This document shows positions 15,617 through 36,734 of a DNA stretch of 38,501 bases, in pieces (the stretch's first letter is position 1; the number at the start of each line of letters is the position of its first letter). The translations under genes were made by a program, and so were the position numbers. Origin of the DNA: Escherichia phage RCF. Under the pieces are notes generated by a model, which was not told the origin of the DNA, ran no database searches, and saw only the letters and a program-made list of their open reading frames with translations. The stretch lies in the sequence record OR941417.1. One strand, 5' to 3'.

Positions 15617-15937
15617 ATGGGATTCTTCAAGAAAATCAAGAAGGCCGTTAAGAAAGTCGTGAAGGAAGTTACCAAACCAGTCGAGAAGGCAGGCAAGGAA
15701 GTCGGTAAAGCCGTTGGCGGTGCGCTTGGTGCAGGTAAGCAGGAGATTATCCAACAAGAGGCTCCAGTACCAGTAGTGACTGCGCCACCTCCAGCACAGG
15801 TTGTAGACGTACCTGAACAGGATAAGGCTGAGGGTGAGGATGAGGCACAAACCGAAAGCGCACGTAAGAAAGCACGCGCTGGCGGTAAGAAGTCTCTGAG
15901 TGTAGCCCGTAGCTCCGGCGGTGGCATCAACATCTAA
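15617..15937 (+). CDS. 7.3: Gene 7.3 tail-associated protein
   Basis: C-terminus TESARKKARAGGKKSLSVARSSGGGINI matches T7 gp7.3. No gene 7 homologue lies upstream. Confidence 0.8.
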   Translation: MGFFKKIKKAVKKVVKEVTKPVEKAGKEVGKAVGGALGAGKQEIIQQEAPVPVVTAPPPAQVVDVPEQDKAEGEDEAQTESARKKARAGGKKSLSVARSSGGGINI

Positions 15938-30510: not shown

Positions 30511-30562
30511 AGGTCACATTCTGGCCTCTTCTCTCTTAATGCTAATTTACAAAGGAGGTCAC

Positions 30563-32170
30563 ATGGCTACAACTATTAAGACCGTGATGACTTACCCGCT
30601 GGATGGCTCCACTACGGACTTTAATATTCCGTTCGAGTATCTGGCGCGTAAGTTCGTCAGAGTGACCCTTATCGGTGTTGACCGAAAGGAACTCATCTTG
30701 AATCAAGACTATCGTTTTGCGACTAAGACCACAATCTCCACAACGAGAGCATTGGGGCCAGCGGACGGTTATAACCTTATCGAGATTCGTCGGTACACCT
30801 CAGCGACTGAACGTCTGGTTGACTTTACGGATGGCTCAATCCTCCGTGCGTATGACCTGAACATCTCGCAGGTGCAGACCCTCCACGTTGCTGAGGAAGC
30901 GCGTGACCTTACCGCTGATACGATTGGCGTTAACAACGATGGCGACTTGGATGCTCGTGGTCGTCGTATCGTGAACGTTGCGGACGCTAAAGACCCCGGT
31001 GACGCAATCACTTTGGGTCAAGTCTCTCGGTGGAATGAGTCGGCACTGAACTCTAAGAATGCTGCTGCTGCATCTCAACAGGCCGCTGCTGCATCCCAAC
31101 AGGCCGCTAAGACCTCAGAGAACAACTCGAAGGTGTCTGAGAACAACGCAAAGACCTCCGAGAGTAACGCGCATCAATGGGCGCAGCGTGCAGAGGACTC
31201 TCCGGTTCAGGGTAGCGAGTTCTCTGCGTATCACTACTCACGGAAGGCCTCAAAGAGTGCCGCCGCCGCAAGTACGTCTGAGGGGAATGCAAAGACCTCT
31301 GAGAACAACGCAAAGACCTCTGAGAACAACGCAAAGACCTCTGAGAGCAACGCCGCTACCAGTGCTGCAACCGCTATCGCTGAGGCCGCCAAGTTGACAA
31401 ACATGAATGATTTTGCGACTACCATCAAGGCTGTTAACACAGCTACCTACTCGGTTTCGTGGAAAGGTGATGGCATGTTTGACGGCTCGGTCACTGCTGG
31501 TAAAGGACTTACAGTGTCTACTGGTGACGTCACCATTAACCAAGGAACGGGCAACTGGGTTTTCCTGAATGGGTACACAGCAGTTGGTGTTAACTACACA
31601 TCCAATGGCATTCGTACATCTAACCGAAACAATCAGCGCGTGGACGACTACACGTGGGAAGCGACAGGGCAGTATTTTGCCAAAGTAGTCCACGTATACC
31701 AAGCAGGCAATCCAAACATTCCAGAGTTCTTCTACGAGTTCCGAAACAATGGTACTGTGCAGTTGGGCCAAGTTAGGGCGATTGGTGGAGATGAATCCAC
31801 CTTCCAGCACAACGTTAATATCCAGTGGGGTGGCCGTGGCGCCCGTTATCAGGAAAATGGCGACATTGTGTCTATACAGGGGGATGCATCCATCTTCCGA
31901 GAATTTGGAGGAACACTTAGTGGTACAATTAACTGGCTTAAGAATGTTAACATTCAGGACGTTTGGTTAGGTGGTCAGGAGTGGTGGGGTTCTTTACGTG
32001 GCAACGGGAATAGCCGTTCTGACTGGGCATTGGGTGGAGGCTCAGTGTGTACTGGCGTGACTCAGGATATGACAGCAGGTGAGCGTAATGCTTGGATTGA
32101 TGGTATATTCCATCGTAAGGTCTGGATTCGTTATGGCTCTGGGCAGCAGCGCATCATTGCTTCTGTTTAA
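30563..32170 (+). CDS. 17: Tail fibre protein (conserved N-terminal tail-attachment domain, repeat-containing shaft, divergent C-terminal receptor-binding region)
   Basis: N-terminal ~150 aa match T7 gp17 (IKTV.TY.LDGS..DFNIPFEYLARKFV.VTLIGVDRK, GVNNDG.LDARGRRIVN); the rest diverges. True start is ATG 30563 after AAAGGAGG; track start 30539 lies in the 5' UTR. Confidence 0.9.
   Translation: MATTIKTVMTYPLDGSTTDFNIPFEYLARKFVRVTLIGVDRKELILNQDYRFATKTTISTTRALGPADGYNLIEIRRYTSATERLVDFTDGSILRAYDLNISQVQTLHVAEEARDLTADTIGVNNDGDLDARGRRIVNVADAKDPGDAITLGQVSRWNESALNSKNAAAASQQAAAASQQAAKTSENNSKVSENNAKTSESNAHQWAQRAEDSPVQGSEFSAYHYSRKASKSAAAASTSEGNAKTSENNAKTSENNAKTSESNAATSAATAIAEAAKLTNMNDFATTIKAVNTATYSVSWKGDGMFDGSVTAGKGLTVSTGDVTINQGTGNWVFLNGYTAVGVNYTSNGIRTSNRNNQRVDDYTWEATGQYFAKVVHVYQAGNPNIPEFFYEFRNNGTVQLGQVRAIGGDESTFQHNVNIQWGGRGARYQENGDIVSIQGDASIFREFGGTLSGTINWLKNVNIQDVWLGGQEWWGSLRGNGNSRSDWALGGGSVCTGVTQDMTAGERNAWIDGIFHRKVWIRYGSGQQRIIASV
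31061..31351 (+). repeat. In-frame 21-bp (heptad) tandem repeats within tail fibre gene 17: block 1 at 31061..31169 (5 units), block 2 at 31289..31351 (3 units, 62/63 nt identical)
   Basis: Units GCAAAGACCTCTGAGAACAAC x2 then GCAAAGACCTCTGAGAGCAAC (AKTSENN/AKTSESN); upstream units encode AAASQQA x2 and AKTSENN/SKVSENN/AKTSESN. Confidence 0.9.
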
Positions 32171-32180
32171 GGAGAACAAT

Positions 32181-32567
32181 ATGGTTAAGTATGAAAACTG
32201 GAAGTGGACTAACGGTGAACAAGTCGGGCCTGATCGTTATATCGCCGAGATTAACATTGGGGAACTCTCTTGGTACGACCTGATGGAAGACTTGGATAAG
32301 CAAGGAGAACGTGTGGTCGTCGGTGTGTCCAGCGATGGAAGCGTCAACTGGTTCACCGATGGTCGGGTATCAGGTGTTCACGCCCCGTCTGATGGGACAA
32401 GTGTTGTTGTGGTTGATAGTGTCCCATTCACTCAGGAAGACTATCGACAATTCATCTTGGTAGGCAACGAGTTCCAGCGTAAGGAAAGCACGCTAACTCC
32501 GCGCACTAAGGAAGACATCATGGCTGACTTAATTAAACTTCAAGAGGAACTGAAAGCTATGGCATAG
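32181..32567 (+). CDS. Hypothetical 128-aa acidic protein between tail fibre and holin; family not recognised
   Basis: ATG 32181 with RBS TAAGGAGAACAAT, 10 nt after the gene 17 stop, no phage promoter of its own. No TM segment. Track start 32079 is inside gene 17 and unlikely. Confidence 0.6.
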   Translation: MVKYENWKWTNGEQVGPDRYIAEINIGELSWYDLMEDLDKQGERVVVGVSSDGSVNWFTDGRVSGVHAPSDGTSVVVVDSVPFTQEDYRQFILVGNEFQRKESTLTPRTKEDIMADLIKLQEELKAMA

Positions 32568-35822: not shown

Positions 35823-36410
35823 CCTGTAGAGTCAACCCTAAAGGTTATACCTAAAGATGCCCTGTAGTTCGTAATGGTCTTACAGGGTCTTCTGGTGTCT
35901 CCTAGCTATCCCTTCGGGATGCGCCTATGGTCTCACCTATGGTGTGGCCTTACCTAAAGTGGGTTCCTAAAGAGACCCTTTAAGAATTTACCACAAAAAT
36001 CTGAATGGGTATCTCACAGTTCAAGAACCCAAAGTACCCCCCATAGCCCCTCTTAAAGCCACCTAAAGCCAGCCCTACCCCTAGGGTTTAACCTTCGGTT
36101 AACCTTGAGTGTCTCCTCAAGTGGCCTATAGGATAGCCTAAAGTGATTCCTAAAGTCAATACCTAAAGTGGTGGATGGCTTAAGGAGGCCTTAAAGAGTG
36201 TCCTAGTGTACCAGTTCGATAGTACATCTCTATGTGTCCCTATCTGTTAGCCTCATAAAGTAAACCCTAAAGCCTCCACCTAAAGCCTCCACCTAAAGCC
36301 ACTACCTAAAGACCAGACCTAAAGCCTCCACCTAAAGAGTGGAGCTATCTTAAAGACAACCAGACTGATAGACCAACTGTTAGCCTGTAGTGACGCCCTG
36401 TAGTTATCTG
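35823..36410 (+). repeat. Genome-end region: arrays of the heptamer CCTAAAG (about 14 exact copies plus CTTAAAG variants), CCCTGTAG motifs, and the probable terminal repeat (about 36012..36241)
   Basis: Exact CCTAAAG copies at 35837, 35850, 35953, 35966, 36062, 36137, 36149, 36162, 36266, 36279, 36292, 36305, 36318 and 36331. TCTCACAG at 36012 matches the conserved T7-group left terminus, and nearby blocks (AACCTTCGGTT.ACCTTGAG, GTGTCCCTATCTGTTA) match the T7 terminal repeat. Confidence 0.6.
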
Positions 36411-36420
36411 TAGTCAATTC

Positions 36421-36442
36421 AATTACCCTCACTAAAGGGAAT
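36421..36442 (+). promoter_or_regulatory. phiOL: T3-type phage RNAP promoter (phiOL-like), AATTACCCTCACTAAAGGGAAT
   Basis: Matches the T3 promoter consensus at the left end. Confidence 0.8.
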
Positions 36443-36495
36443 AAGGGATACTTAAAGAGGGAATAAGGGATTTAATAAAAGATTTAAATTAATGG

Positions 36496-36525
36496 TTGAC
36501 TTTAAGTAACCCTTAAGGCTATTAT
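36496..36525 (+). promoter_or_regulatory. A1: Host sigma70 early promoter A1-like (TTGACT, ~18 nt spacer, TATTAT)
   Basis: -35/-10 hexamers read from the sequence; location at the genome left end matches T7 A1. Confidence 0.55.
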
Positions 36526-36624
36526 TCATCTCGTCAACGGGACAACGGCCTTAAAGCCACTCCCTGAGATACCGGAGTCAACCGGATAAGTAGACAGCCT
36601 GATAAGTCATACGAAAAACAGGCA

Positions 36625-36654
36625 TTGACAACATGAAGTAACATGCAGTAAGAT
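36625..36654 (+). promoter_or_regulatory. A2: Host sigma70 early promoter A2 (TTGACA ACATGAAGTAACATGCAG TAAGAT)
   Basis: Near-identical to the T7 A2 promoter sequence as I recall it. Confidence 0.8.
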
Positions 36655-36734
36655 GTACCACATAACGTCAACCACAAATCGGTGTCTTCTAGGTGACTTA
36701 AGCGCACCACGGCACATAAAGCGAAACAAAATGG

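Follow-up and report, generated by a model that had tools for sequence, protein, structure and literature searches.

Near-identical 21-bp repeats in gene 17 of Escherichia phage RCF encode heptads of a tail-fibre rod of nearly constant length

Introduction

Does a near-perfect tandem repeat inside a tail-fibre gene mark a site where a phage freely varies the length of its fibre? The question is raised by gene 17 of Escherichia phage RCF (sequence record OR941417.1), in which 21-bp units recur in frame within the segment encoding the shaft of tail fibre protein gp17. The window analysed here is the whole stretch of 38,501 nucleotides, and matches to gene 17 and its flanks identify the phage as a Teetrevirus, a T3-like podophage of the Autographiviridae. 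An earlier sequence-only reading of this DNA had taken the repeats for the product of recent duplication, for part of a coiled-coil shaft and for a plausible hypervariable site of fibre length. We find that the arrays encode heptads (Ala at position a, Ser at position d) of a rod that is most likely a trimeric coiled coil, that their units turn over, and that the length of the rod is held at about 16 heptads.

In-frame tandem-repeat rods in which whole-repeat number changes by recombination or slippage include the adenovirus fibre shaft, streptococcal M proteins and the stalks of trimeric autotransporters. The length of those rods varies widely between types, whereas the total length of the RCF-type rod is nearly constant.

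Results

Three in-frame arrays of 21-bp units lie within the rod of gp17

Tandem Repeats Finder (TRF) reported three period-21 arrays within gene 17, at 31064-31108 (2.1 copies, 95% matches), 31105-31170 (3.1 copies, 68% matches) and 31289-31353 (3.1 copies, 97% matches, score 123). We refer to them as arrays 0, 1 and 2. The gene and the parts of its rod are as follows, with amino-acid (aa) positions in gp17 and the basis of each assignment in brackets where it applies; CDS is coding sequence and AF2 is AlphaFold2.

30563..32170, + strand: gene 17, tail fibre protein gp17, 535 aa plus stop (PF03906, T7 alignment, 1608-nt CDS of relatives)
30563..31054, + strand: N-terminal tail-attachment domain and shoulder, aa 1-164, ending SALNS (PF03906; T7 structures 7BOZ, 8DSP, 8E4G)
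31055..31390, + strand: proximal rod or shaft, aa 165-276, 112 aa or 16 heptads from SALNS to the KLxNxN hinge (AF2 helices, heptad composition)
31064..31105, + strand: array 0, AAASQQA twice, aa 168-181, units 1 nt apart (TRF, unit table)
31106..31168, + strand: array 1, AKTSENN, SKVSENN and AKTSESN (xKxSExN three times), aa 182-202, diverged units (TRF)
31178..31243, + strand: conserved 22-aa non-repeat insert WAQRAEDSPVQGSEFSAYHYSR, aa 206-227, breaking the helix at aa 209-221
31247..31288, + strand: degenerate heptads ASKSAAA and ASTSEGN, aa 229-242 (unit table; repeat family D1 copy 31268-31332, 74% identical)
31289..31351, + strand: array 2, AKTSENN twice and AKTSESN, aa 243-263, with 62/63 nt identical, central to the finding (TRF, exact-unit search)
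31391..31408, + strand: hinge motif KLTNMN, aa 277-282, where the rod meets the distal half-fibre (conservation, alignment with T7 KLENYN)

An exact-unit search placed GCAAAGACCTCTGAGAACAAC at 31289, 31310 and 31331 with 0, 0 and 1 mismatches, respectively, which bears out the earlier description of a three-copy block with 62 of 63 nt identical. Positions 31106 and 31148 carry diverged copies with 2-3 mismatches, arrays 1 and 2 share 86% identity across 65 nt, and none of 100 dinucleotide-preserving shuffles contained any match to the unit. Read in frame, the N-terminal side of the rod runs AAASQQA AAASQQA AKTSENN SKVSENN AKTSESN AHQWAQR and then enters the non-repeat segment AEDSPVQGSEFSAYHYSR; the C-terminal side runs K ASKSAAA ASTSEGN AKTSENN AKTSENN AKTSESN AATSAAT AIAEAA and then reaches KLTNMN. 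The blocks seen in the earlier reading are thus real and in frame, but what it counted as the first of them is two arrays, AAASQQA repeated twice and xKxSExN repeated three times.

A programmed or phase-variable on/off switch operating by slippage was also considered and ruled out: the unit is 21 bp long, in frame and inside the CDS, and all variants keep the frame. A weaker period-21 repeat is present in another gene at 15629-15671 (2 copies, 77% matches, AAGAAAATCAAGAAGGAAGTT).

The rod most likely forms a trimeric coiled coil interrupted by a conserved insert

An AF2 monomer model built on 72 homologues (predicted local distance difference test of 52 rising to 88) has helices at residues 151-208 and 222-286, separated by 13 non-helical residues (209-221) with short strands. 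In the same 72 homologues, W206, A207, V215 and S221 of the insert are invariant or nearly so, hinge residues K277 and N282 are invariant, and L278 and N280 are nearly invariant. The insert is 22 aa long in 71 of 74 distinct shafts. Heptad composition was determined in 71 distinct shafts, collected with a broader insert pattern and with duplicates removed: position a is Ala in 80% and Ser in 18-19%, position d is Ser in 77-79% and Trp in 18% in the N half, and the other positions are polar. Thus, the predicted alpha-helix and the seven-residue a/d periodicity that a coiled coil requires are both present, with core residues that are small (Ala/Ser) plus an occasional Trp rather than Leu, Ile or Val. 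A small-residue core, though atypical, fits a thin, dynamic rod.

One of the closest counterparts is T7 gp17. The T7 proximal half-fibre has been characterised by AlphaFold 3, molecular dynamics, small-angle X-ray scattering and atomic force microscopy as a torsionally dynamic coiled coil of three helices; its shoulder is at ~aa 144-160 and its hinge at ~aa 266-272 (PMC13485008). The T7 hinge corresponds to the KLxNxN motif. RCF gp17 and T7 gp17 share gene position, a homologous N-terminal domain, an alignment that continues through the rod to the hinge, a heptad repeat whose a/d residues are small or aromatic, and a rod flanked by shoulder and hinge; HMMER aligned the a/d positions of the RCF rod with the A/F positions of the FRNEAET-type heptads of T7, and W206 with a T7 Trp. 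However, the T7 rod (~aa 160-266) is 100 aa long and continuous, with FRNEAET-type heptads and without near-identical DNA repeats, whereas the RCF rod has 112 aa, an Ala/Ser core, a 22-aa insert containing Pro and Gly, and near-perfect 21-bp units, and the RCF distal domain is unrelated in sequence to that of T7. A Foldseek search of the monomer model against the PDB matched only T7 gp17 N-terminal chains, with no solved structure over the rod.

Heptads similar to those of RCF also occur in the depolymerase DpK2 of Klebsiella phage RAD2, which carries AKTSEDNAKSSENAAKNSE at residues 130-171 and aligns with array 2 (E=7e-5). Its region N-terminal of residue 191 is an extended triple helical bundle in cryo-electron microscopy (PMC8552709). 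DpK2 (PDB 7LZJ; also 7VYV and 7VZ3) resembles RCF gp17 in its AKTSEDN/AKSSENA/AKNSE heptads but is a tailspike from a different type of phage, has no atomic model of the bundle, and matches over only ~42 residues. Because the T7 proximal section and DpK2 both form triple helical structures, we infer a trimeric geometry for the RCF rod: by analogy, aa 165-276 most likely form a parallel trimeric alpha-helical coiled coil in which the insert splits two helical segments. The coiled-coil character that had been proposed for the shaft is supported by AF2 helices, by the heptad pattern and by the triple coiled coil of the T7 counterpart. A match to the stalk domain of trimeric autotransporters (YadA_stalk, PF05662; aa 143-182 of a 543-aa open reading frame (ORF) that begins upstream of the gp17 start) reached 14.7 bits against a cutoff of 28.4 (E=0.04) and was rejected.

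Units are gained, lost and homogenised among relatives

Comparison of copy number across related genomes, which the earlier reading had suggested as a check, revealed variation in exact 21-bp steps: in phage records and protein clusters, the arrays differ by whole units only. Some copy numbers derive from metagenome assemblies, notably Logan assemblies with k=31. Array 0 has 1-2 copies among relatives, array 1 has 2-5 and array 2 has 2-4. RCF, GP-5, Keithstache and NL_ZS_3 combine 2 AAASQQA units in array 0 with 3 AKTSENN units in array 2, whereas Bobalons, GlastosBack, S147 and Pantoea phage F2M1C combine 1 with 4. In DNA alignments, RCF and Bobalons differ by two clean 21-bp gaps of opposite sign, ~250 bp apart, with near-identical sequence between them, and 21-bp indels are clean between genes of 94-97% identity. 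Array 1 consists of 3 identical AKTSETN units in Poynor and 5 identical units in ECA2, and has 4 units in P0026 and F1M1C and 2 in P0012; array 2 has 2 units in P0012 and P0022. Sibilus-type shafts reach an equal N-half length from another mix of units (1 + 4 vs 2 + 3). The P0026 protein (WP_349043436.1), a T3-like tail fibre, lies on a 39-kb contig labelled Brucella melitensis at NCBI, almost certainly a contaminating enterobacterial phage genome in a Brucella assembly.

The units also change in concert. The three copies of array 2 carry TCT in RCF and TCA in GP-5 at the same synonymous site, Keithstache has GCG in both AAASQQA units, and array 1 of NL_ZS_3 has been converted to the array-2 unit. 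The three-copy state of array 2 is common to phages that are 3-5% diverged. Concerted synonymous sites together with a three-copy state shared across this divergence therefore point to ongoing homogenisation and turnover rather than to one recent duplication; of the earlier claim, the near-identity stands, and the recent duplication calls for qualification. From their sequences, slippage, unequal exchange or conversion appears to be at work in the arrays. Their near-identity in DNA would expose whole units to gain, loss and homogenisation through replication slippage, unequal recombination or gene conversion, and changes confined to 21 bp, the only ones seen, would keep both the reading frame and the heptad register. 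A literature search on direct-repeat deletion in T7 found no specific paper.

Rod length is quantised in heptads and strongly centred

Shaft length was counted between the last residue of SALNS and the KLxNxN hinge. Among 69 homologues that carry a WAQ...YHYSR insert, every shaft has a length divisible by 7, and 62 of these 69 shafts are 112 aa long; in the distinct-shaft set, the rod is 112 aa in 62 of 71. In the 112-aa rods, the helical residues are split around the insert in five ways, 27/63, 34/56, 41/49, 48/42 or 62/28 (N/C), and the sum is always 90. Total length had a variance of 14.2, about one seventh of the summed variances of the N half (56.7) and the C half (49.9), and 0 of 10000 permutations reached the observed concentration of lengths. 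The 112-aa total is common to about ten sequence-distinct lineages and to all 13 members of the 90%-identity protein cluster of RCF gp17, which carry either 2+3 or 1+4 units in arrays 0 and 2.

The exceptions also fall on the heptad scale, with rods of 98 aa (P0012, P0013 and P0017), 105 aa (P0022, P0111, P0284 and Poynor) and 119 aa (ECA2 and P0135); natural heptad counts are 15 in Poynor, 16 in F1M1C or P0026-type rods and 17 in ECA2. T7-type rods centre on 100 aa, with variants of 93 and 107, and T3/phiYeO3-12-type rods centre on 117 aa. Thus, rod length is quantised in heptads and strongly centred, not hypervariable, and the proposal of a hypervariable fibre length is largely not borne out, with array losses mostly offset by gains elsewhere. 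Literature searches on variation of heptad or repeat number in tail fibres returned nothing on point, and a pattern of length homeostasis was not found described in the literature searched.

Far shorter rods were seen in a few homologues. In P0121 (Logan contig of SRR24079949, L078:950-2413), the gp17 rod has just 44 aa and reads as a precise join between AKTSETN units of arrays 1 and 2, with the insert and ~70 aa deleted; the join would reflect either a natural deletion between arrays or a collapse in the k=31 assembly. The rods of P0134 and P0170 are also short and resemble that of P0121.

The rod is exchanged as a module bounded by shoulder and hinge

By megablast, most Teetrevirus genomes are 92-99% identical to gene 17 as far as query positions 486-528, just before array 0, and then diverge. 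Ningirsuvirus and ECA2-type genes match until query ~811-878 (position 878 lies at ~31416 in the window), just past the hinge. These breaks in similarity at the shoulder and hinge therefore indicate that the rod is exchanged as a module bounded by both.

The same heptads are widespread beyond these phages. Matches to the shaft were obtained in 20 PHROG families, of which 17 carry a tail or tail fibre label, at varied positions in proteins of 277-1452 aa. In IMG/VR, AKTSE[TN]N arrays that differ in length are present in ORFs from contigs of 5-148 kb. Such fibres share the heptad consensus with RCF gp17, with variable copy number (3-10+ units), but have other N-terminal anchors and other tips. 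A tblastn search of phage records with the shaft gave at least 26 records, a yield limited by the low-complexity filter. A homologue search with the shaft alone (137 aa) gave only 8 weak matches, with E-values penalised by low complexity and database size; the homologue set was taken instead from full-length and exhaustive searches. Literature text searches with motif strings (SETNAK, SENNAK, TSETNA) yielded no relevant paper. Similar motifs were reportedly noted in lambda Stf, P2 H and related fibres by Haggard-Ljungquist in 1992 and Sandmeier in 1994. A blastn search with the shaft DNA found no match in 5,426 E. coli genomes, leaving DNA sharing with prophage side tail fibres unsupported. 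The heptad motif is thus a common builder of tail-fibre rods and is not specific to this phage.

Some IMG/VR ORFs iterate a module of heptads plus a W..V..YSAxH insert 2-5 times. In L019:601-1290 (contig 3300026521_000098) and in the 1553-aa protein P0234, for example, AKTSE[DN]N heptads and a KWAEEA.DTEVETGKYSALHHA insert form a module present about five times in tandem; P0234 has 10 separate matches to the RCF rod. Iteration of this heptad-plus-insert supermodule appears to be the way in which long fibres are built.

Gene 17 in its genomic setting

The closest megablast match of gene 17 is Klebsiella phage vB_KpP_GP-5, with 96.9% identity over the entire gene. In a full-length protein search, the deposited RCF tail fibre matched gp17 at 100% identity. 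The Pfam domain PF03906 (Phage_T7_tail) was found in gp17 with E=3.6e-58 (196 bits against a cutoff of 25.2), and HMMER matched gp17 to T7 gp17 PDB chains with E=1.5e-82. Translation starts at ATG 30563 (MATTIKTV), as in the annotation of relatives and in alignment with M1 of T7 gp17; the upstream ATG at 30539, the listed start of the 543-aa ORF, was ruled out on the same two grounds. As in relatives, the gene lies between gene 16, which encodes an internal virion protein with a transglycosylase, and the class II holin and terminase genes. RCF gp17 thus has the PF03906 domain, the gene position and a heptad rod within the ~100-117 aa found between shoulder and KLxNxN hinge in the T7/T3 family, but its distal half-fibre and tip are not homologous to residues 371-553 of T7 gp17. 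In two deposited records, gp17 is irregular: that of Pantoea phage F2M1C is annotated as 403 aa followed by small ORFs, with homology ending at query position 1224, and that of Yersinia phage WW2 is broken into two CDS near the N terminus. Both look like frameshifts or sequencing errors in those records.

Downstream of the hinge are the following features.

31409-32167, + strand: distal half-fibre, gp17 aa 283-535
32181-32567, + strand: 128-aa gene between gene 17 and the holin gene (17.5), with no T7 counterpart

The distal half had no Pfam match (aa 290-535), no sequence match in the PDB and no significant Foldseek match, the PDB alignment of gp17 to T7 ending at ~residue 316; judged by sequence, it is probably a receptor-binding module unlike the T7 tip. 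The product of the 128-aa gene gave no match in a Pfam search, and the gene is annotated as a tail fibre assembly protein in GP-5 and in Erwinia phage ZCEA1. It co-occurs with the non-T7 distal domain and may encode a chaperone of that domain.

Three ORFs on the opposite strand run through the repeats.

31250..31810, - strand: spurious antisense ORF, 186 aa (3 internal stops in GP-5)
31107-31334 and 31234-31440, - strand: shorter spurious antisense ORFs

These ORFs were rejected as genes: the 186-aa ORF has three internal stops in the 97%-identical GP-5 sequence, and amino-acid identity in the antisense frames falls below that of the gp17 frame. The repeat unit is free of stops in all three antisense frames, and this assists the extension of three antisense ORFs through the repeats. 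The sequence-only reading was right to call them spurious, but the repeats merely extend rather than generate them, as the 186-aa ORF lies mostly outside the repeats.

Elsewhere in the window, positions 36050-36700 contain short CCTAAAG-type repeats (TRF 36132-36170 and 36266-36337, period 13) followed by a T3-type phage promoter, AATTACCCTCACTAAAGGGAAT (~36412-36434), and sigma-70-like TTGAC- promoters. This segment resembles a concatemer junction together with the left end of a T3-like genome; the 38.5-kb sequence is therefore probably a circular permutation of the whole genome.

Discussion

Unit loss in one array of these rods is usually paired with unit gain in another, and the pairing would most likely arise through selection for a fixed rod length. 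In a stronger form, which we put forward tentatively and with rather less confidence than the rod assignment itself, the proximal rod of T3/T7-type fibres would be under length homeostasis, such that its arrays mutate often by whole units and selection or register-shifted conversion keeps a set number of heptads (16 in this clade). If so, the insert would drift along the rod while the ends of the rod keep a fixed distance, and rod length would act as a functional ruler, for example when fibres are stowed on the capsid or when the length of the tail has to be matched at the cell surface.

Several observations count against the account of a turning-over coiled-coil rod of held length. Made of Ala and Ser, the core is only weakly hydrophobic, which is not typical of stable coiled coils, and the solved T7 gp17 N-terminal chains end at ~residue 164, before the rod. 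Assembly artefacts could account for some of the copy numbers taken from metagenomes, in particular those of Logan k=31 assemblies. The permutation test takes no account of phylogenetic relationships among the sequences, and its significance is overstated to that extent. Length is not strictly fixed, as the viable isolates Poynor (105 aa) and ECA2 (119 aa) demonstrate. Finally, a register-shifted double crossover would preserve total length without selection.

This last point can be developed into an explanation of its own, in which length conservation is a mechanical by-product: a single out-of-register gene conversion or double crossover between two genomes would cost one flank of the insert a unit and give the other flank a unit in the same event. 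The arrays flanking the insert do share the 21-bp period, with arrays 1 and 2 alike over 65 nt as noted above, RCF and Bobalons differ by exactly -21 and +21 bp to either side of a near-identical DNA segment, and NL_ZS_3 displays conversion between arrays. However, single length-changing events are expected to be commoner than double events, yet length-changing variants are the minority; the lost and gained units in the RCF/Bobalons pair are of different kinds and in different arrays (AAASQQA and AKTSENN, respectively); and the Sibilus-type shafts attain their N-half length with a different unit mix. We regard this explanation as unlikely.

Equally improbable, in our judgement, is that the repeats serve chiefly as recombination linkers, providing shared low-complexity homology for swaps of tail-fibre modules between unrelated phages. 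The clustering of breakpoints in 113 phage records just before array 0 and just past array 2 and the hinge is in keeping with such a role, as are the 20 PHROG families and the AKTSE[TN]N arrays in IMG/VR tail-fibre ORFs. The breakpoints fall at domain boundaries (shoulder and hinge), however, and not within the arrays; the lack of a DNA match in E. coli genomes, prophages included, speaks for weak DNA homology across families; and the shared protein motif could reflect common ancestry or convergence on a rod-forming sequence.

We think it somewhat less probable again that the arrays are a freely hypervariable site yielding adaptive variants of fibre length, in an extension of the sequence-only reading. 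Per-array copy number does vary, and rods of 98, 105 and 119 aa exist, including those of two cultured isolates, but the predominance of 112 aa among distinct shafts and throughout the RCF cluster, the offsetting of array changes and the small total variance all argue for constraint. That the repeats are static, with no special instability, and that copy-number differences are assembly errors is very improbable: short single-sample contigs such as P0121 (2875-nt Logan) and P0284 (2256-nt ENA) lend it something, but complete genomes of cultured isolates differ (RCF, GP-5, NL_ZS_3 and Keithstache vs Bobalons, GlastosBack, S147 and F2M1C, and Poynor vs ECA2), the arrays span 42-105 bp and are below typical read length, and concerted synonymous changes cannot arise from assembly.

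The turning-over rod of held length is no new kind of system, and the pattern of length homeostasis is its sole modestly new element. With it, a conspicuous DNA repeat is accounted for as sequence that encodes a coiled-coil rod, and such repeats need not mean free variation of fibre length. For the engineering of fibre chimeras, the shoulder and the hinge are natural junctions, and the number of heptads should be kept. That gains and losses of units compensate one another suggests a constraint on rod length as a design parameter of T7-like fibres.

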